Source: Microbacteriaceae bacterium
GTDB lineage: Bacteria; Actinomycetota; Actinomycetes; Actinomycetales; Microbacteriaceae
DNA: 64,000 nucleotides
Assembly (NCBI GenBank): GCA_014378715.1
Contig: JACMNE010000004.1
Span: forward strand, 7,725-71,724
Direction: 5' to 3'
How positions within the stretch are numbered: the first letter of the stretch is position 1; the number at the start of each line of letters is the position of its first letter. The notes under the pieces were generated by a model. The model searched no databases. It worked only from the letters and a program-made list of their open reading frames with translations, and was not told where the DNA came from. This document shows positions 6,349 through 62,258 of this stretch, piece after piece. The translations under genes were made by a program, and so were the position numbers.

Positions 6349-8604
6349 CTAACCGGCGCTTACCCTGTAGACGTCGTAGACGGCGTCGATGCGCCGCACC
6401 GCGTTCAGGACCCGGTCGAGGTGGGTGGTGTCGCCCATCTCGAAGACGAACCGGCTGATCGCCAGGCGGTCGCTCGAGGTGGAGACCGTCGCCGACAGGA
6501 TGTTCACGTGGTGCTCGGAGAGCACCCGGGTGACGTCGGAGAGGAGGCCCGCCCGGTCGAGCGCCTCGACCTGGATCTGCACCAGGAAGATGCTCTTCGA
6601 CGACGGCGCCCACTCGACGTCGATCATCCGCTCGGGTTCGGTGCGCAGCGACTCGACGTTACGGCAATCCGACTGGTGCACCGAGACGCCAGCGCCCCGG
6701 GTGACGAACCCGACGATCGCGTCTCCCGGTACCGGGGTGCAGCACTTCGCGAGCTTGACGAGAATGTCGGGCGCCCCGCGCACGAGCACCCCGGAGTCGC
6801 TGTTGCGCAGCTGCTTCGACTTGCCGCGGCTGGGCAGGGTGAGCTCGGCGTCCTCGGCCTCCGCCTCGGTGTTGATCGTCGCGAGCACCCGCTCGAGCAC
6901 CGACTGGGTCGAAACGTGTCCCTCGCCGACGGCCGCGTAGAGCGCGGAGACGTCGTCGTAGCGCATCTGCGACGCCACGCTGCTGATCGAGTCCTGGCTC
7001 ATCAGCTTCTGCAGAGGCAGGTTCTGTTTGCGCATCGCACGGGCGATGGCGTCACGGCCCTGCTCGATGGCCTCGTCGCGCCGTTCCTTGGTGAACCACT
7101 GCTTGATCTTGTTGCGAGCCCTCGGGCTCTTGACGAAGTTCAGCCAGTCCTGGCTGGGGCCGGAGTCGGGGTTCTTCGAGGTGAACACTTCGACGACGTC
7201 GCCGCTGTTGAGCACGGTCTCGAGGGGCACGAGCCGTCCGTTGACCTTCGACCCCATGGTGCGGTGGCCGACCTCCGTGTGCACGCCATAGGCGAAGTCC
7301 ACGGGGGTGGCCCCGGCCGGGAGGCCGATGACCTTTCCCTGCGGGGTGAAGACATAGACCTCCTTGGCTCCGATCTCGAAGCGCAGGGAGTCGAGGAACT
7401 CGCTCGGGTCGACGGTTTCGGCCTGCCAGTCGCTGATGTGCGCCAGCCAGGCCATGTCGCCGTCGTCGGTGAGGGCGCCCCCGGAGCTTTTGCCGCCGTT
7501 GACCCGCTCCTTGTACTTCCAGTGGGCGGCAACGCCGTACTCGGCCCGGCGGTGCATCTCCTCCGTGCGGATCTGGATCTCGACCGGGCGCCCGTTCGGG
7601 CCGATGACGGTCGTGTGCAGGGACTGGTACAGGTTGAACTTGGGGGTGGCGATGTAGTCCTTGAAGCGGCCAGGGATCGGGGTCCACCTGGCGTGGATCG
7701 CGCCGAGCACGGCGTAGCAGTCCCGCAGTGAGGTGACGAGCACCCGGATGCCGACGAGGTCGTAGATCTCGTCGAACTCGCGGCCGCGCACGACCATCTT
7801 CTGGTAGATCGAGTAGTACTGCTTCGGGCGGCCAGCGACCTTGCCTTTGATGCGGTTGACCTTGAGGTCGTCGCTGACGGCGTCGATGACCGCCTGCACG
7901 AACTCCTCCCGCTTGGGGGTGCGCTGCCGCACAAGGCTCTCGATCTCGACGTAGAGCTTGGGGTAGAGCACCGCGAACGACAGGTCCTCGAGCTCCCACT
8001 TGATCGTCTGGATGCCGAGCCGGTGCGCGAGCGGAGCGTAGATCTCCAGAGTCTCCTGGGCTTTGCGCCTGGCCGACTCCGACTCGACGAATCCCCAGGT
8101 GCGGGCGTTGTGCAGGCGGTCTGCGAGTTTGATGACCAGCACGCGGATGTCCTTCGACATCGCCACGACCATCTTGCGTACCGTCTCGGCCTGGGCGCTG
8201 TCACCGTACTTGAGCTTGTCGAGCTTGGTGACCCCGTCGACGAGCATCGCGATCTCGTCGCCGTACTCCTCGCGGAGCACGTCGAGGCTGTAGTCGGTGT
8301 CCTCCACCGTGTCGTGCAGGATCGCGGCGGCGAGGGTCTTCGGCCCGATCCCCAGGTCGGCCAGGATCTGTGCCACGGCGATGGGGTGGGTGATGTACGG
8401 TTCGCCGCTCTTGCGCAGCTGCCCTCGGTGGGCCTTCTCGGCGGTCACATAGGCGCGTTCGATTATCGAGACGTCGGCCTTCGGGTGCTGTGCACGTGCC
8501 GTCTTGACGAGGCGGTCGACGGCACCGACCGGCTGCGTCTTGGAGAACAGGCGGGGTAGGAAGGCGCGCAGCGATGCGATGCTCGGCGTTGTCGTCTCGC
8601 TCAT
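6349..8604 (-). CDS. relA: Bifunctional (p)ppGpp synthetase/hydrolase (RelA/SpoT homolog)
   Basis: 751 aa with HD domain (HPIAVAQILADLG, ILHDTVEDT), synthetase domain (YKSLHTTVIG-like: YQSLHTTVIGPNGRPVEIQIRT), and TGS and ACT domains. Confidence 0.95.
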   Translation of the reverse strand: MSETTTPSIASLRAFLPRLFSKTQPVGAVDRLVKTARAQHPKADVSIIERAYVTAEKAHRGQLRKSGEPYITHPIAVAQILADLGIGPKTLAAAILHDTVEDTDYSLDVLREEYGDEIAMLVDGVTKLDKLKYGDSAQAETVRKMVVAMSKDIRVLVIKLADRLHNARTWGFVESESARRKAQETLEIYAPLAHRLGIQTIKWELEDLSFAVLYPKLYVEIESLVRQRTPKREEFVQAVIDAVSDDLKVNRIKGKVAGRPKQYYSIYQKMVVRGREFDEIYDLVGIRVLVTSLRDCYAVLGAIHARWTPIPGRFKDYIATPKFNLYQSLHTTVIGPNGRPVEIQIRTEEMHRRAEYGVAAHWKYKERVNGGKSSGGALTDDGDMAWLAHISDWQAETVDPSEFLDSLRFEIGAKEVYVFTPQGKVIGLPAGATPVDFAYGVHTEVGHRTMGSKVNGRLVPLETVLNSGDVVEVFTSKNPDSGPSQDWLNFVKSPRARNKIKQWFTKERRDEAIEQGRDAIARAMRKQNLPLQKLMSQDSISSVASQMRYDDVSALYAAVGEGHVSTQSVLERVLATINTEAEAEDAELTLPSRGKSKQLRNSDSGVLVRGAPDILVKLAKCCTPVPGDAIVGFVTRGAGVSVHQSDCRNVESLRTEPERMIDVEWAPSSKSIFLVQIQVEALDRAGLLSDVTRVLSEHHVNILSATVSTSSDRLAISRFVFEMGDTTHLDRVLNAVRRIDAVYDVYRVSAG

Positions 8605-8702
8605 TCACGCTCCCTCATCAGCAAAGCTAGCACCGGCGGCCGGGTGCCCCGTGCAGCCGCCCGGGCGGTCAGGTCGACGGCCGGTTCGACCGGGGGTGGA
8701 CT

Positions 8703-8726
8703 GCTCAGTCGACCGCTCAGTCGACC
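8703..8726. repeat. 12-bp tandem duplication (GCTCAGTCGACC x2) spanning a stop codon
   Basis: gctcagtcgacc gctcagtcgacc. The second unit carries the last codons and the stop (TCA on the plus strand, 8717-8719) of the rhodanese gene. Confidence 0.8.
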
Positions 8727-9043
8727 GTGGGCGGCGCTGAACCGTCGGCGACGATGTCACCGCCGGCGTCCCGCCAGGCGATCATGCCGCCGTCGACACT
8801 CGCCGCGTCGTAGCCCGCGTTCACGAGGGCCGACGCGACCCGGGCGGATCGCTGGCCGGAGTGGCAGACCACGAGGATCCTGGCGTCATCCGGCAGCTCT
8901 CCGACCCGCTCCTGCAGCGCCGACATGGGCAGCAGGGTCGCGAGGGGCGAGTGGCCGCGCGCCCATTCGTCTGCTTCCCGGACGTCGATGAGCAGCGTGC
9001 CGCTCTGCACCTGGCTGAGGGCGTCGGCCGCGGAGACGTTCAT
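8717..9043 (-). CDS. Single-domain rhodanese-like sulfurtransferase
   Basis: 108 aa with active-site loop CHSGQRSA. 4-nt overlap with the secF stop. Confidence 0.85.
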   Translation of the reverse strand: MNVSAADALSQVQSGTLLIDVREADEWARGHSPLATLLPMSALQERVGELPDDARILVVCHSGQRSARVASALVNAGYDAASVDGGMIAWRDAGGDIVADGSAPPTVD

Positions 9044-53066: not shown

Positions 53067-53634
53067 CTAGTCCTCGAACGGGACCGGCGCCAGCACCGGC
53101 AGGGTCGACTCCGTGTTGCCGACCCGGAGGTACGGTTCGACGAAGACGCGCTCGTCGCCGACGGCCGGCTGCCACCAACGTGCGGCGATGACCGAGTCGT
53201 GCACGAGCGGCACGGTCGCCTCCGGGGCCGGCGCCTCGAGCCAGTCGTTCGCCGTCGCCAGCGGCAGCCGGTATCCGATCGACGCGAGGTGCGAGCGCAG
53301 GGACCTGGCGGCCGCATCCCGTCTGGCCGCGTCGGCGCGGGCGCTCTCGGCCCGCCTGCGCGCCACCAGTTGCATCGGCAATACCACGAAGAGGGCGAAG
53401 GGCGCTCCGGTGCCGGCGATGCCGACGGCCACGAGGGTGCCGGCATCCGCCGCCCCGACCGTTGCCCCACCCGCGATCACCAGCGCGGCGCCCAGCGCGA
53501 GCACACCGACCACGAACGCCACGATCCCGATCGGGATGATCCGGGCGGGGCGGGCGGAGTCGAGGGCGGCCCGGGTGACCGCCGTGGTCTCCACGGCGGC
53601 CGCCGGCAGCGAGGAGGACGGCACCGCGCGCAGC

Positions 53635-53642
<8 letters not shown>
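53067..53642 (-). CDS. Hypothetical membrane protein translationally coupled to parE
   Basis: 191 aa with two predicted TM helices (IIPIGIVAFVVGVLALGAALVIAG; LVAVGIAGTGAPFALFVVLPMQLV). ATG overlaps the parE stop (ATGTCTGA). High GC3. I recognise no family. Confidence 0.55.
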
Positions 53643-55713
<2,071 letters not shown>

Positions 55714-55931
55714 GGGTGTTCTCCTTCGTGGCCTGCGGGAGTGGTGCGGGCGTGTCCCACCGATCAGCCGCGTTCCAGCCTAATTCACCCCGCCGGCCGG
55801 CACCGCGTCGCAACACCGGGCGGGAAACACTACGCGGTGAGCGAAATCGTGTGTATTGCCACGCGGTTGTCACCGGTGTGTGTTGTGATAGAGCCTGTAT
55901 CCGCACGTATCGAGTTTTGGAGGAACCCGAA

Positions 55932-56150
55932 ATGTCTCAGACCGCCCCCCGTTCCACTGTCGAACTTGAACCGCGCCACGAACTCACCGCCGACGACCGC
56001 TGCGACAGCTGTGGTGCCCAGGCCTACGTCCGTGTCACGATGGCGAGCGGCCAGCTCCTGTTCTGCGCGCACCACGGCGCCAAGTTCAAGGACAAGCTCT
56101 CCGCCAGCGCCCTCGAGTGGCACGACGAGTCCAGCAGGCTCAACCAGTAG
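55932..56150 (+). CDS. Small conserved actinobacterial Cys/His protein (DUF7455-like, zinc-ribbon-like)
   Basis: 72 aa from ATG 55932 behind GGAGGA. CDSCGAQAYVRVTMASGQLLFCAHHG (CxxC...CxHH). The DUF number is assigned from memory. Confidence 0.65.
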   Translation: MSQTAPRSTVELEPRHELTADDRCDSCGAQAYVRVTMASGQLLFCAHHGAKFKDKLSASALEWHDESSRLNQ

Positions 56151-56163
56151 CCCAATCTGCATC

Positions 56164-56203
56164 ACGGGCCGGCATGGATTCGTCCATCCCGGCCCGTTTT
56201 TTT
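56164..56203 (+). terminator. Rho-independent terminator
   Basis: ACGGGCCGGCATGGA-TTCG-TCCATCCCGGCCCGT hairpin followed by TTTTTTT. Lies between convergent genes. Confidence 0.8.
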
Positions 56204-56231
56204 GTGCCACATCCACAGAGCGGATGTCGGC

Positions 56232-58382
56232 TCAGCCCAGATAGCGGCGGGGAAGCTCGGGGCTGACGCGTACCGCGAGCTCCTCCCCGATCGTCCCCAG
56301 AGTGTCCGCCCAGTCCTGGAGGGTGAGTTCGCCCTCCGCTCCCCCGAAGATCACCACACGGTCGCCCTCCTCCGCCGAACCGTCATCTGATCCGAGGTCG
56401 ATCTCCAGGTGGCGCGCTTCGACGCGGCCGACGATCGGGTATCGGCGACCGTCAATCGTCACGGGCAGGAGGCCGGGGCAGCCCGCGGGGATTCCGTGCG
56501 CGGTGCCGAGCGAGACAACGCCGGTGCGCCCGGTGTTGCTCGCACGAACTGCGGTGAGGGTGCCCGCCAGCGTCATCACGGGCGCCAGGCCGAGGTCGGC
56601 CGGTCCCACCCCTCCTCCGGGAGCGATCCCGTAGGTGAACGCTCCCATCCGCACCAGATCAAACCGACAGTCGTCGCGGGCGAAACCCGCGGCGCTGGCG
56701 GCGAGGTGGGTGACGGAAACGTGCGCCCCCAGGTCCTCCGCCACCGCGATGGCAATCCGGAACCTCTCGGCAGCGGCGGTGTCTTCGTCGTCGGATGCCT
56801 CGGCGATGTGCGTCCACACCCCGGTGAGCTGGGCCAGCCCGGCCCGCTCCAACTCGAGGGCGGCCGCTACCAGCGGTGGCCATTCCTGCTCCGTTGCTCC
56901 GTTCCGGTGCAGTCCGGTGTCGATCTTCAGGTGGAGACGCGCCGGAACACTCGCCCCGCTCGTCCCGATCGCCTCCAGCTGGTCGATCGTCGACACACCC
57001 AGCTCGATGCGCGCGTCGATGGCCGACCGATAGTCGTCCCAGGGTCCGAGAAGCCAGGCGAACAGGGAGACCTCGTGGCCGATCCCCGCGGACCGGAGGG
57101 TGAGGCCGGTTGTCACGTCGAGCACCCCGATCCGGGTGACTCCAGCGGCGACGGCCGCCCTGGCGATGGGCAGGAGCCCGTGTCCGTAGGCGTCACCCTT
57201 GATGACGGCCATCAGCTCGGACGGGGCAAGGCGGTCGCGCAGCAGTGTGAGATTGCGGCGGTACGCGTCGAGGTCGATCGTGACCACGCCCTCGGCACCC
57301 TCGGGGTTCAGCTGGCGGCGATCGAGATCTACCCGATCCCGGCACAACCCGATGGCGAACGCGGTGGCGGTATCGACCGGGGTGCGTCCGACTGCCGCCG
57401 CCCAGGTCGCAATGCCGGGTTCGCCCCGGGCCGGATCCCCGACGATCACCACCTCCGCGCCGATCCTGGTCGTCGCCGACCCCAGGTCGAGCACGATGAC
57501 GTCCATGGCTACGCGACCCGCGATCGGGTAGAGCACACCGTCGAGCCACGCGACCCCACGGTTGCCGGCCACCCGGTCCAGTCCATGCACGTAGCCGATC
57601 GAGACCAGCGCGAGGTTGCTGCGCTGGCTTGTTCGGTAGGTGTAGCCGTAGGAGATCCCCTCCCCGGCGTCGACGGTCTTTGTGGCGACGACGGTCGCGG
57701 TCACCCTCAGGGCCGAGGCGAGGGTGGCCCCGTCGCCGAACGGGACCCCGACGAGTTCGCGGTCGATCACGATCGCCGTCGAGCCGGCCGAGACTCCGCC
57801 GAGTCGCCCGGTCAGGGGAGGAGCCAGCCCGGCGCGGGTGGCGGCGGTGACGACGGTCTCGAACTCGGAGCCGATTGCCGTCACGGCGGCGGGGACGTCC
57901 GCACCGGGGAAGCCCCACAGTCCGTCCACTCGCAGATCGCCCCGGCTCTCGAGCCCGGCCGCCTCCGCGAGCGTCACCGCGAGATCCCGGCTGCTGAACC
58001 CGCGCACCCCGCTGCCGAGCGCCGCGGCGAGTTGCACGTGGTGCAGGCCGGCTCGCGCCGCCTCCTCGAGTCCGGCGACGGAGGAGACCACGGGCACCAC
58101 CGTGTGGTCCAGATAGGAGCGCGGATCGTCGGTGGGCCTGTGCCACGCGGCGAGGACGGACCCGACCCCGGCATTCCGCACGGCGATCGCGTCGTCGAGT
58201 GTGGCGACGATCAGGGAGTCGATCCCCCCGGCGCTGGCTGCTGCGGCAAGCGCGGAGGTCGCCGTGGCCCAGCTCGACAGGTCGGCGACGATAGCGACAT
58301 CCGCTGATGCCTGTCGCACTGCCCGCAGGTTGCCCGCAACGGCGTCGGCGCTGAGCGAGAGGGAGTGCAGAGGGCGCCTCAC
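56232..58382 (-). CDS. Tandem (head-to-tail) fusion of two alanine-racemase-fold modules
   Basis: 716 aa, GTG start at 58382. C-terminal module carries AVIKGDAYGHG, HLKIDTGLHRNG, WTHIA, VRMGAFTYG. N-terminal module carries GEGISYGYTYRT, SIGYVHGLDR, GRVAMDV but no PLP lysine motif. See findings. Confidence 0.85.
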   Translation of the reverse strand: MRRPLHSLSLSADAVAGNLRAVRQASADVAIVADLSSWATATSALAAAASAGGIDSLIVATLDDAIAVRNAGVGSVLAAWHRPTDDPRSYLDHTVVPVVSSVAGLEEAARAGLHHVQLAAALGSGVRGFSSRDLAVTLAEAAGLESRGDLRVDGLWGFPGADVPAAVTAIGSEFETVVTAATRAGLAPPLTGRLGGVSAGSTAIVIDRELVGVPFGDGATLASALRVTATVVATKTVDAGEGISYGYTYRTSQRSNLALVSIGYVHGLDRVAGNRGVAWLDGVLYPIAGRVAMDVIVLDLGSATTRIGAEVVIVGDPARGEPGIATWAAAVGRTPVDTATAFAIGLCRDRVDLDRRQLNPEGAEGVVTIDLDAYRRNLTLLRDRLAPSELMAVIKGDAYGHGLLPIARAAVAAGVTRIGVLDVTTGLTLRSAGIGHEVSLFAWLLGPWDDYRSAIDARIELGVSTIDQLEAIGTSGASVPARLHLKIDTGLHRNGATEQEWPPLVAAALELERAGLAQLTGVWTHIAEASDDEDTAAAERFRIAIAVAEDLGAHVSVTHLAASAAGFARDDCRFDLVRMGAFTYGIAPGGGVGPADLGLAPVMTLAGTLTAVRASNTGRTGVVSLGTAHGIPAGCPGLLPVTIDGRRYPIVGRVEARHLEIDLGSDDGSAEEGDRVVIFGGAEGELTLQDWADTLGTIGEELAVRVSPELPRRYLG

Positions 58383-58548
58383 ACATTCCCTTCGTCGAAC
58401 ACGAGCACTATCGACCCCACTCTATCCCGCGGGCGCTGCCAGGAAGCCGGGCTCCGGCCGCCCTCCTCCCTGGTTCACCCACACCCTGGCTGTAGGCTGG
58501 CAGATGGAAATCAGACGTATGCACGACAAATCTTTGGGAGAGAACACC

Positions 58549-59586
58549 GTGGCCTCAGGCACAACCCCACCGCAGAGCCTCGGGCTTCGGACCCGTCTCA
58601 AGTACGTGGCGGAGCGTGTTCGTGGATTCGACGGGGCGTCGCTCCTGACCAGGGCGAGGGCGGTCGCGGCGACAACCCACAAACCGGTCGTCTCTGTGCT
58701 GTGCGACATGCTCTACTCGGCCGCCTTCCGGCACACGGCCTTCCAGGACTACGTCGATTTCGACTTCGCTCTCCTCACCCGGGCGGAGCGGGCGACATTC
58801 ATGACCCACTCTTTCTCCAATCACATCGCGGACAAGTTCGACCACCCGGACTACCGGGTGCTCTTTCACAACAAGATTGAGTTCAACCGCACTTTCGGCG
58901 AGTTCCTCGGGCGGGAGTGGCTCGACATCAGGCGGGCCTCGGCGCAGGACCTGCGCGAGTTCGCCCAACGCCACGGGCGCATCATCGGCAAGGTTCCGGT
59001 CAGTGACTCCGGACACGGGGTGTCCCGGTACGAGGCGGATGAGATCGACGACTGGGATGCGTTCCTCGCGGAGCTCCTCCGCACAGGCCAGACCCTCGTC
59101 GAGGAGAACATCCAGCAGCACCCCGACCTCGCGGTCATCTGCCCCGGGACCGCGAACACGACCCGGGTCACGGCGTTCTTCGACGGAAGCCAGTCCCACA
59201 TCCTCTCGATGGCGCAAAAGTTCGGCCGCGGCCAGGCCAGCGACCAGCAGACGTTCGGGGGCTTCTACACCATGCTCGATGACAACGGCGCGTCCCGCGG
59301 GCCCGGGTACGACTCCCACGACGGCGTCTTCGCGACCCACCCGGAGTCTGGCGTGTCGATCCCCGACTTCCGCCTCCCGATGATGCCTGAGCTGCGAGAG
59401 TTCATCGACCGGGTCAGCCGGGTGGTGCCCCAGGTGCAATACGTCGGCTGGGACATCGTGATCGGTCCGTCCGGCCCGGTGCTCGTCGAGGGCAACTGGG
59501 GAGCCGGCGTCTACGAGAACAAGCCCAGTGTCACCGGAATCCGCACCGGCAGCCTGCCTCGATTCCGGAGCGTCATCGGGTTCTAG
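58549..59586 (+). CDS. ATP-grasp fold amidoligase (resembles the sugar-transfer-associated ATP-grasp family)
   Basis: ORF 58132..59586 trimmed to GTG 58549 (GGGAGAG 6 nt upstream; codons upstream have low GC3). ATP-grasp motifs RIIGKVPVSDSGHGV, LVEENIQQHP, VGWDIVIGPSGPVLVEGNWGAG (ExN). Confidence 0.75.
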   Translation: MASGTTPPQSLGLRTRLKYVAERVRGFDGASLLTRARAVAATTHKPVVSVLCDMLYSAAFRHTAFQDYVDFDFALLTRAERATFMTHSFSNHIADKFDHPDYRVLFHNKIEFNRTFGEFLGREWLDIRRASAQDLREFAQRHGRIIGKVPVSDSGHGVSRYEADEIDDWDAFLAELLRTGQTLVEENIQQHPDLAVICPGTANTTRVTAFFDGSQSHILSMAQKFGRGQASDQQTFGGFYTMLDDNGASRGPGYDSHDGVFATHPESGVSIPDFRLPMMPELREFIDRVSRVVPQVQYVGWDIVIGPSGPVLVEGNWGAGVYENKPSVTGIRTGSLPRFRSVIGF

Positions 59587-59644
59587 CGTCCCTGCCGCGC
59601 GGCGACAGCCGGGGTCGTCCACGTGGGGCCCCGGCGAAGGGCGC

Positions 59645-59931
59645 TTAGGTCGTCCGCCGGCGCAGCATATCGCGGGCGACGCCGAATTCCGGCGTGCGGT
59701 GCTCCACGGGGACGGCGAAGCTGCCCCCGACGGTGAGGGAGACCACATTGTTGACGACGGGTGCCACGCGTAGGAGGCGAAGATCACGGAGTAGAACAGC
59801 TGTGGGATGCACCACTCGGCGAACAACGTCGGGGGCTCGTGCCGGTCCGCGGTGATGCTGTTCGGGAGCTGGTTAGCTGTCGCGAACGCATCGCAGGCAT
59901 GTCCGATGGCCACGATTGCCCCGACGAGCAC
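59645..59931 (-). pseudogene. Small membrane-protein ORF interrupted by a frameshift (or sequencing error)
   Basis: Two consecutive high-GC3 minus-strand frames. First frame: VLVGAIVAIGHACDAFATANQLPNSITADRHEPPTLFAEWCIPQLFYSVIFASYAWH. Second frame, after a 1-nt shift near 59759-59766: PVVNNVVSLTVGGSFAVPVEHRTPEFGVARDMLRRRTT, ending at stop TAA 59647-59645. Confidence 0.4.
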
Positions 59932-60069
59932 GATTCTCCGGAGCAGGCGGTGGTCCGGGAGTCGAGGGTTCCCGCCGCGATCATCGAGCTCGCTCGGCCG
60001 AGTCTCCTCAGCTCGCCGCTCTCACTGCGGGGAGCGAACGCACCCGGCCCGGCCCGGGGCGATGCTGCC

Positions 60070-60771
60070 TCACTGCTCGCGGCGGATGATGCCCATCGGG
60101 GTAGACTGGTGCCCCTGACCGAGTGGATTGTCGCGCAGCACCCGCTCGAGGGTGCGGGTTCTGGCGCGATCGACCGTTGATCCGAGCACATTCCCACCCA
60201 GGTCGTTGATGTCGGTGATGAGCACTTCGACATTACCTCCAAGAGCCGCCCGAAGGGCCCGCGCGACCTCGTGGGGACGCTCGGGGGCAAGGACGACGTG
60301 GGCGTTGAATGGCGGTATGGTTCCGCTGGTCGGACCGTCGATCCCGCGGGCCTTGGGGCCGGCGACCCGGTAGAAGTCACCCCGGCGTCCGAACGGCTTC
60401 GTGACGGCTGCTACGGCGGCGGCGAGTACGATGCGCGGTGTGCCGCACTCGCGCAGCGCCATCTCCATCGTCTGCGGGAGCCCGAGGCCTATGCCGCTCG
60501 GCGTGCGTGCCACGTGGCCGGACAGCCACGTGGCCAGTTTGCGCGGGATGATGGATTCAGTCGGATATGAGCGCCCCTGCGTGATGGCGACGATCTTCTC
60601 GGTCACAAAAAGCACGTCGCGGTCGCGGAGAAGTGCGGAGGCGAACGTGGTGACCACCTCGGTGATGTCGTCGCCTTCCAGTACGAGCTTGGTCTTGATC
60701 GGGATGCGCAGGTAGCGCACGCCGTCGACGACCGTCTCCAGCTGCTTGCCGTCGTTCGCTTTAGCGGGCAT
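60070..60771 (-). CDS. CofE-like (F420-0:gamma-glutamyl ligase fold) protein
   Basis: 233 aa. DVLFVTEKIVAITQGRSY, ARGIDGPTSG, VEVLITDINDLGGNVLGST and NPLGQGHQSTPMGIIRRE resemble the PF01996 family pattern. Assigned from motif memory, not from a search. Confidence 0.6.
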   Translation of the reverse strand: MPAKANDGKQLETVVDGVRYLRIPIKTKLVLEGDDITEVVTTFASALLRDRDVLFVTEKIVAITQGRSYPTESIIPRKLATWLSGHVARTPSGIGLGLPQTMEMALRECGTPRIVLAAAVAAVTKPFGRRGDFYRVAGPKARGIDGPTSGTIPPFNAHVVLAPERPHEVARALRAALGGNVEVLITDINDLGGNVLGSTVDRARTRTLERVLRDNPLGQGHQSTPMGIIRREQ

Positions 60772-60811: not shown

Positions 60812-62161
<1,350 letters not shown>

Positions 62162-62258
62162 GAGGGTACCTTTCAGGTTCTTGCTGCAGTCGTTCTCGGG
62201 TGGTCGTCGAGGCCCTCGCACGGGGTGATCGTGCCGCTGGTTCGGGGGTGGGAGGCGT

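Follow-up and report, generated by a model that had tools for sequence, protein, structure and literature searches.

What do an alanine racemase-type protein, an ATP-grasp protein and a CofE-fold protein do side by side between the core genes parE and rpoD of a Microbacteriaceae genome, and do they act in one pathway? We addressed this question by comparative analysis of a 64,000-nucleotide stretch of contig JACMNE010000004.1 (hereafter the window). A first-pass annotation of the same DNA had correctly located the three open reading frames (ORFs), which are the following.

56232-58382, minus strand: fused racemase ORF of 716 amino acids (aa), matched by Pfam and TIGR00492 profiles
58549-59586, plus strand: ATP-grasp ORF of 345 aa, matched by PF14397 ATPgrasp_ST
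60070-60771, minus strand: CofE-fold ORF of 233 aa, matched by PF01996

Catalytic residues of the two racemase modules

The 716-aa protein had been described as a fused racemase. Two racemase modules of the type Ala_racemase_N plus Ala_racemase_C were indeed found in the one ORF (Pfam E values 4e-61 and 5e-45), and its TIGR00492 score of 271 bits (cutoff 168) makes the protein a member of that family. It is, however, not a simple fusion. Judged from its residues, it is an alanine-racemase-fold protein of two non-equivalent, complementary modules, a pseudo-heterodimer. Its halves are arranged as follows.

57318-58382, minus strand: N-half, aa 1-355, degenerate TIM barrel and intact beta-domain
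56232-57317, minus strand: C-half, aa 356-716, catalytic barrel and a beta-domain with the Tyr265 loop deleted

Both halves were aligned to the alanine racemases (Alr) of Streptomyces coelicolor (5FAC) and Geobacillus stearothermophilus. The numbering of the latter sequence reproduces Lys39, Arg219 and Tyr265. Catalysis by alanine racemase uses two bases, Lys39 and Tyr265 (PMC10851380). The N-half keeps Tyr245 (the Tyr265 equivalent, nucleotides 57648-57650), Tyr264 (Tyr284) and Met293-Asp294 (Met312/Asp313). It carries Asp34 (58281-58283) at the position of the lysine that binds pyridoxal 5'-phosphate (PLP), and all checked barrel residues are lost. The C-half possesses the PLP-lysine, Lys395 (57198-57200), together with the equivalents of Tyr43, Lys129, Arg136, His166, Ser204, Arg219 and Gly221. 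Its Tyr265 loop is deleted after aa 609, the equivalents of Tyr284, Met312 and Asp313 are lost, and Glu700 (56283-56285) stands in place of Tyr354.

In order to follow this pattern through the family, the residues were counted in the window and 78 further loci (n = 79). Each of the barrel residues was kept in 78-79 of the 79 large modules or C-halves, and the Tyr265 loop was deleted from every one of them. The small modules or N-halves retained Tyr265, Tyr284 and Met312 without exception and Asp313 in 72 of 79 cases, and Lys39 and the barrel residues Tyr43, Lys129, Arg136, His166, Ser204 and Arg219 were absent from them. At none of the 79 loci did Tyr265, Tyr284, Met312 and Asp313 lie in the module with Lys39, as they would in a symmetric homodimer. 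The complementary pattern also held for Leifsonia, for Gryllotalpicola and for locus L095, and of 12 single-gene control homologs, 10 carried both residue sets in one chain.

In most genera the modules are encoded by separate, overlapping genes for a small subunit (alrS, ~210-325 aa) and a large subunit (alrL, ~345-380 aa). Nearly the whole barrel of the small subunit has gone in most genera, and often little more than the beta-domain is left. Fusion was seen only in the window, at loci L001 and L003, and in a small number of relatives, Parafrigoribacterium and Terrimesophilobacter among them. Among nine fused orthologs mean identity was lowest in the N-half barrel (55%) and reached 79% in the C-half barrel and 71-72% in the two beta-domains. 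A 3.9-kb contig also encodes a free-standing, full-length homolog of the small-subunit type (P0147, 399 aa); it has Ser at the Lys39 position, has lost the barrel residues and keeps Tyr265, Tyr284, Met312 and Asp313.

Because the lysine-bearing barrel occurs only in the C-module and the Tyr265-type residues only in the N-module, we infer that the modules pair like the subunits of an Alr dimer and form one composite active site per pair. In the fused protein the pairing would be intramolecular; in most genera it would join small and large subunits. No description of a heteromeric or split alanine racemase was found in the literature searched.

The single composite site would racemise a free alpha-amino acid, most probably alanine. 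Tyr354 is the substrate gate and specificity determinant of alanine racemases, and Asn at this position leads to serine racemases. Here the position is occupied by Glu in 78 of 79 cases and by Asp in Leifsonia, and Tyr is present in 10 of the 12 single-gene controls. The large module has in addition Ser at Asp171 and Glu at Thr169. Together with the gate residue, these give an entryway of more acidic character than that of the canonical Alr controls. With Glu or Asp at the Tyr354 gate and Ser for Asp171, the enzyme may use a substrate other than plain alanine.

The bridge diamino acid of Microbacterium varies, M. enclense having L-lysine and its clade mates D-ornithine (PMC10757982). The contig that encodes the exact M. 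enclense ATP-grasp protein (L099) has kept alrS (211 aa) and alrL (345 aa) along with cofE-like and rpoD. Retention of the racemase irrespective of the bridge residue speaks rather for a universal product, for instance D-alanine. Provided that these genomes have no canonical alr, the split enzyme would be the housekeeping alanine racemase of the family.

Conservation and linkage of the block

The surroundings of the three genes are made up as follows.

53635-55713, minus strand: parE
55929-56150, plus strand: DUF7455 zinc-ribbon protein, convergent with the racemase gene and conserved beside parE
58383-58548: intergenic region between the divergent racemase and ATP-grasp genes, 166 bp (GTG start at 58549) or 136 bp (ATG start at 58519)
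59587-60069: lineage-specific spacer of 483 bp where the ATP-grasp and CofE-like genes converge, no demonstrable gene
60812-62221, minus strand: rpoD, principal sigma factor, probably the upstream gene of the transcription unit that holds the CofE-like gene

A scan of one genome per species yielded 316 places encoding a relative of the ATP-grasp protein, the best 80 of which were analyzed as Microbacteriaceae loci. These 80 all belong to the Microbacteriaceae and represent at least ten genera, among them Microbacterium, Paramicrobacterium, Cryobacterium, Frigoribacterium, Lacisediminihabitans, Homoserinimonas, Terrimesophilobacter and Gryllotalpicola. Searches with the window proteins (tblastn) recovered the order parC (+), parE (-), DUF7455 (+), alr (-), ATP-grasp (+), cofE-like (-), rpoD (-) in almost all of these best 80 loci. 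The cluster, which had been taken for an accessory one, is a conserved Microbacteriaceae module and not a strain-specific island.

The alrL gene lies divergent from the ATP-grasp gene and at most 1.5 kb away in 76 of 77 evaluable loci. In Leifsonia sp. Root112D2 (L094) rpoD, cofE-like, ATP-grasp, alrS and alrL follow each other on one strand, with 4-bp overlaps at the ATP-grasp/alrS and alrS/alrL junctions. At L095 an ATP-grasp ortholog 47% identical to that of the window lies 10 bp upstream of alrS-alrL; a second ATPgrasp_ST paralog (33% identical) is divergent from alrS-alrL, and the two paralogs occupy 6801-9026 side by side. In Gryllotalpicola (L017) alrL, alrS and the ATP-grasp gene have left the neighbourhood of parE, cofE-like and rpoD as a unit and lie beside mfd and eno. 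The 76/77 adjacency, the translational coupling in Leifsonia, the L095 operon and the joint move in Gryllotalpicola bind racemase and ATP-grasp tightly to each other, and a functional link between the two is supported. The neighbourhood check proposed in the first-pass annotation thus came out in favour of this pair.

For the CofE-like gene the co-occurrence expected of all three genes held only in part. It is convergent with the ATP-grasp gene, at most 1 kb away, in 69 of 73 loci; at L057 neither it nor rpoD follows the ATP-grasp gene, and in a Homoserinimonas metagenome-assembled genome (MAG; L002) it lies directly upstream of alrS. Its distance to rpoD is 40 bp in the window and 6 bp (median) in the relatives, so that the two genes are probably co-transcribed. 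Linkage of the CofE-like gene is thus strongest with rpoD and looser with the racemase and ATP-grasp genes. In Canibacter (L098, 8728-12457) DUF7455, a diverged ATP-grasp gene (34% identical), cofE-like and rpoD are kept, and no racemase pair is present at the locus, from which it was either lost or moved.

The racemase and ATP-grasp genes had been proposed to share a divergent region of 166 bp. This length is correct if the ATP-grasp gene starts at GTG 58549; ATG 58519 is the start of the deposited ATP-grasp protein (355 aa). The corresponding gap is ~45 bp in Microbacterium, and no match to the sigma-70 consensus was found in 58383-58548.

A fourth gene, a frameshifted small membrane ORF on the minus strand, had been assigned to 59587-60069. 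This candidate was rejected: six-frame translation gave no clean ORF, blastn and tblastx revealed no homology between this segment and 94 related loci or the window itself, and there was no Rfam match. A terminator scan of the segment was also empty. The gap between the ATP-grasp and CofE-like genes varies from 9 to 833 bp in 69 loci (median 83) and measures only ~60 bp in the closest relative, L001; the 483-bp spacer is unique to the window genome. At L004 (11011-17846) and L072 (11017-19186) inserts of 7-8 kb with low G+C content at third codon positions (GC3) lie between the two genes. This convergent junction is an insertion hot spot.

Identical copies of all three proteins occur in public data on one MAG contig of 76,411 bp. 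It is labelled 'Burkholderiaceae bacterium' at NCBI; the relatives of the three proteins and their neighbours are Microbacteriaceae, and the G+C content is 70%. The label is probably a taxonomic error or the result of faulty binning. The GC3 values of the racemase (0.85), ATP-grasp (0.85) and CofE-like (0.81) genes are below those of most neighbouring housekeeping genes (0.90-0.94). A horizontally acquired island was ruled out, since the base composition is unremarkable, GC3 is only slightly lower and the block is conserved family-wide. In Lacisediminihabitans changchengi the whole locus appears on two scaffolds of one assembly (L008 and L010) with identical coordinates and identities, owing either to an assembly duplication or to a recent large duplication. 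Between parC and parE the window encodes an Ala-rich predicted membrane protein of 191 aa (53067-53642, minus strand; 8-bp overlap with the parE start), which has no Pfam family and gave a tblastn match only in the closest relative, L001 (49% identity). Long ORFs antisense to real genes (53113-56244, plus strand; 58555-59931, minus strand; and others, up to 1043 aa) were dismissed as artefacts of the 70% G+C content. A partial scan found ordinary housekeeping genes in the rest of the window, and it turned up no Mur, F420, nonribosomal peptide synthetase or glycosyltransferase genes, in agreement with the first-pass annotation.

The ATP-grasp protein, its cell-wall neighbours and the possible product

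The ATP-grasp protein matched PF14397 with an E value of 2e-24 and 86.9 bits (cutoff 31.4) and is a member of this family, which is said to have been defined by Iyer et al. in 2009. Its orthologs are 57-76% identical across genera. Lys148, Glu185, Asp302, Glu314 and Asn316 were invariant across 14 diverse homologs; from general knowledge of ATP-grasp enzymes we take them to be ligands of the nucleotide and of magnesium. The AlphaFold2 model (mean predicted local distance difference test score, pLDDT, 72) shows an ATP-grasp fold preceded by a helical N-terminal domain of ~120 aa, and PsnB, RimK and Ddl were the best structural matches (E ~1e-6). Matches to solved structures came from this fold search alone; the sequence search gave no meaningful one. 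No curated NCBIfam family was matched, and nine homologs scanned gave only sub-threshold RimK-like and glutathione-synthase matches.

To find more distant relatives, 1.8 billion cluster representatives were searched with a profile. One Microbacteriaceae cluster scored 544 bits, followed by full-length relatives with 170-296 bits; the named ones belong to Canibacter, Erysipelotrichaceae (two clusters), Erysipelothrix, Atopobiaceae and 'Clostridiales'. Those outside the Microbacteriaceae whose gene contexts were examined are 25-34% identical to the window protein. In Erysipelotrichaceae (L081-L084) murT-gatD is followed by a flippase gene of the MurJ/Polysacc_synt type and then by the ATP-grasp gene. 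At L090 and L091 the order is murT-gatD-ATP-grasp with a gap of 10 bp, and at L097 ATP-grasp-murT-gatD with overlapping genes. The relatives in these murT-gatD contexts show ~28-34% identity. Thus, the ATP-grasp gene is associated with peptidoglycan genes in both groups, with alr in the Microbacteriaceae and with murT-gatD in three Firmicute arrangements. Further relatives lie beside ezrA, between ftsEX and infC, or before an Acyl_transf_3 gene, and an Erysipelothrix-type contig (L088, 6976-9023) carries two tandem ATPgrasp_ST genes.

MurT-GatD amidates the alpha-carboxyl of the D-iso-glutamate of lipid II. The bridge of group-B peptidoglycan, chemically described in 1972, is anchored at the alpha-carboxyl of D-glutamate. 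RimK-type ligases and glutathione synthase extend a free alpha-carboxylate, and the weak profile similarity of the ATP-grasp protein to these enzymes was counted in favour of a role at such a group. Erysipelothrix rhusiopathiae and Holdemania filiformis possess B1-delta peptidoglycan (PMC4062643). Several of the nearest named ATP-grasp clusters outside the Microbacteriaceae come from this second group-B lineage, Erysipelotrichaceae and Erysipelothrix. In other Gram-positives ATP-grasp ligases build D-amino-acid cross-bridges (PMC2922099, citing Bellais 2006).

Taken together, we give an even chance to the locus being a conserved module for peptidoglycan-precursor chemistry. As judged from gene context, the ATP-grasp protein would activate a carboxylate with ATP and make an amide bond on the stem peptide of peptidoglycan, most plausibly at the free alpha-carboxyl of D-iso-glutamate. 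MurT-GatD amidates this same group, and the group-B bridge is attached there. The CofE-fold protein, probably co-transcribed with rpoD, would be a second nucleotide-dependent amide ligase. A more specific version is only tentatively put forward: in Microbacteriaceae and Erysipelotrichaceae alike, the PF14397 protein would be the ligase by which the group-B bridge, whether glycine or a diamino acid, is joined to the D-glutamate alpha-carboxyl, with the split racemase and the CofE-fold ligase as dedicated partners. One division of labour would be that the racemase supplies the residue for the bridge or epimerises it, and that the second amide bond is left to the CofE-fold ligase. Paired ATPgrasp_ST paralogs, as at L088 and L095, might reflect two ligation steps for a two-residue bridge, for example Gly-L-Lys. 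In the literature searched we found neither a mention of PF14397 nor a paper that names the enzymes building the group-B bridge.

Several observations weigh against this proposal. The functional reading is guilt by association throughout. Atopobiaceae, whose walls are of the A-type, also carry an ATP-grasp relative, and one context of a relative was neutral. The peptidoglycan of Leifsonia is B2-gamma with a one-residue bridge, and because Leifsonia has both ligases, 'one ligase per bridge residue' is no simple fit. Since the Firmicute homologs are only 25-34% identical, specificity need not transfer. The CofE-like gene is apart from the other genes at L017, L057, L004 and L072, and its membership in the pathway is only positional. 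The first-pass annotation had suggested that the racemase makes the bridge D-diamino acid; this role is weakened by the L-lysine species, as the M. enclense-type contig keeps the pair, and by the absence of the pair from the Canibacter locus. Its broader idea of a cell-envelope target fared better: it is plausible for the ATP-grasp protein through the murT-gatD contexts and the Erysipelotrichaceae relatives. The peptidoglycan hypothesis is therefore partly supported. For the ATP-grasp protein the support is real, though purely comparative; it is smaller for a racemase making the D-diamino acid, and slight for the CofE-like protein.

In the strongest competing explanation synteny is conserved but no pathway is shared: the split racemase would simply be the housekeeping alanine racemase of the family, and the ATP-grasp and CofE-like proteins would do unrelated jobs, such as RimK-like aminoacylation of protein C termini, in a rarely rearranged core region. 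The TIGR00492 score above cutoff and the 175.7 bits between the C-half barrel and Streptomyces Alr agree with this explanation, as do the retention of the pair in an L-lysine species and the housekeeping character of the whole region. RimK is among the best fold matches of the ATP-grasp protein, and several Firmicute homologs adjoin translation genes (infC-rpmI-rplT, ileS, glyS, valS). Co-function is nevertheless indicated by the 4-bp overlaps in Leifsonia, the L095 operon and the joint move in Gryllotalpicola, and the murT-gatD association recurs in three arrangements. We regard mere synteny as unlikely, at about one chance in five.

Somewhat less probable still is a soluble small molecule, i.e. 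a D-aminoacyl or gamma-glutamyl di- or tripeptide serving as low-molecular-weight thiol, osmolyte or cofactor tail, on which the CofE-like and ATP-grasp proteins would act as successive ligases in the manner of CofE/CofF or GshA/GshB. Two different amide-ligase folds and a racemase do occur together here, the weak glutathione-synthase and RimK-like matches are compatible with such chemistry, and CofE with the ATP-grasp protein CofF is a known pairing (PMC8498797). This reading has to face the partial scan of the window, in which no other biosynthetic, transport or regulatory genes appeared. Moreover, the Firmicute homologs sit with cell-wall genes, no CofE-like gene was present in any Firmicute ATP-grasp context examined, and in Microbacteriaceae the CofE-like gene is often apart from the other two.

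Could the CofE-like protein be a true F420-0:L-glutamate ligase, and the locus serve synthesis of the F420 tail? The earlier assignment to the CofE fold was confirmed. The protein matched PF01996 (E 4e-14, 53 bits, cutoff 25), its AlphaFold2 model (pLDDT 84.7) matched the CofE structures 2PHN and 7ULD in Foldseek (E 5e-10 to 4e-9, probability 1.0, template modelling score 0.53-0.58; Archaeoglobus fulgidus CofE at E 5e-10 and a score of 0.55-0.58), and the Asp of the CofE 'ITDTNG' motif has its counterpart in Asp187 (nucleotides 60211-60213). Database names likewise read 'coenzyme F420-0:L-glutamate ligase'. The scores are, however, far below the cofE equivalog cutoffs (TIGR01916, 34.4 against 180.65; NF009810, 25 against 304; NF009809, 23.4 against 274), and identity to CofE is only 18-19%. 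'AITQGR' is found where CofE has 'SKAEGR', and ~45 residues follow the ITD motif compared to ~100 in A. fulgidus CofE. Neither the partial scan of the 64-kb window nor the related contexts for which genes had been called showed any other F420 biosynthesis gene. A true CofE role was ruled out on the strength of the equivalog scores and the gene context, and we consider it highly improbable that the locus serves F420. Equally improbable is a modification of surface polysaccharide or flagellin glycan by the ATP-grasp protein, a reading that draws on the Pfam name 'sugar-transfer associated' and on database names such as 'flagellar biosynthesis protein', as no glycosyltransferase or flagellar genes lie nearby in the window or in the Microbacteriaceae contexts examined.

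Significance and comparison with known systems

Group-B peptidoglycan defines the Microbacteriaceae, including the plant pathogens Clavibacter and Leifsonia, and also occurs in Erysipelothrix; the locus provides a short list of candidates for the enzymes that build its bridge. The split racemase would stand out among fold-type III PLP enzymes as a clear case of a naturally occurring obligate pseudo-heterodimer. After duplication the 'cis' residues alone would have survived in one copy and the 'trans' residues alone in the other, and the two genes would have been re-fused in one lineage. The split matters for annotation, since both genes are called 'alanine racemase', and it is relevant to the design of inhibitors of the D-cycloserine type.

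The pairing of a racemase gene with an ATP-grasp ligase gene has a counterpart in Racfm and Aslfm of Enterococcus faecium. Racfm is a PLP-independent racemase of the Asp/Glu type, in contrast to the Alr fold found in the window. Aslfm is a D-aspartate ligase encoded together with this aspartate racemase (Bellais et al. 2006, cited in PMC2922099). Aslfm adds a branch amino acid to a peptidoglycan precursor; a like role of the window's ATP-grasp protein is a proposed one. Aslfm activates the incoming D-Asp, whereas in the window system the carboxylate of the stem peptide is more likely to be activated. MurT-GatD, the lipid II iso-glutamine synthase, acts on the alpha-carboxyl of D-iso-Glu via an acyl-phosphate, and its genes adjoin those of ATP-grasp relatives. 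Unlike the window's ATP-grasp protein, MurT has a Mur-ligase fold and transfers ammonia, and murT and gatD are absent from the window, so that the two systems are related through gene context alone. CofE and CofF, the latter an ATP-grasp alpha-glutamate ligase, offer a precedent for a pairing of ligases (PMC8498797, PMC10861534). The window protein has the fold and the ITD Asp in common with CofE; it differs in its scores below the equivalog thresholds, its shorter C-terminal region, the absence of an F420 context and its probable co-transcription with rpoD.

The closest comparison for the racemase is the canonical homodimeric Alr/DadX (PDB 1SFT, 5FAC, 1XFC). The fold is the same; the PLP-lysine, Arg219, Arg136 and His166 are found in the C-module of the window protein and the base of the Tyr265' type in the N-module, so that the same two-base mechanism would operate. 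An Alr/DadX dimer has two active sites, whereas a pair of split modules would have at most one. Unlike in Alr/DadX, the Tyr265 loop is gone from the PLP-binding module, Tyr354 is replaced by Glu or Asp, and Asp171 by Ser. A further parallel is offered by prozyme systems such as the trypanosomatid AdoMetDC/prozyme, in which a catalytically dead, duplicated paralog is retained as the obligate partner of the active one. The split racemase differs from these in that its 'dead' module would still contribute catalytic residues in trans, and neither module alone should be active.

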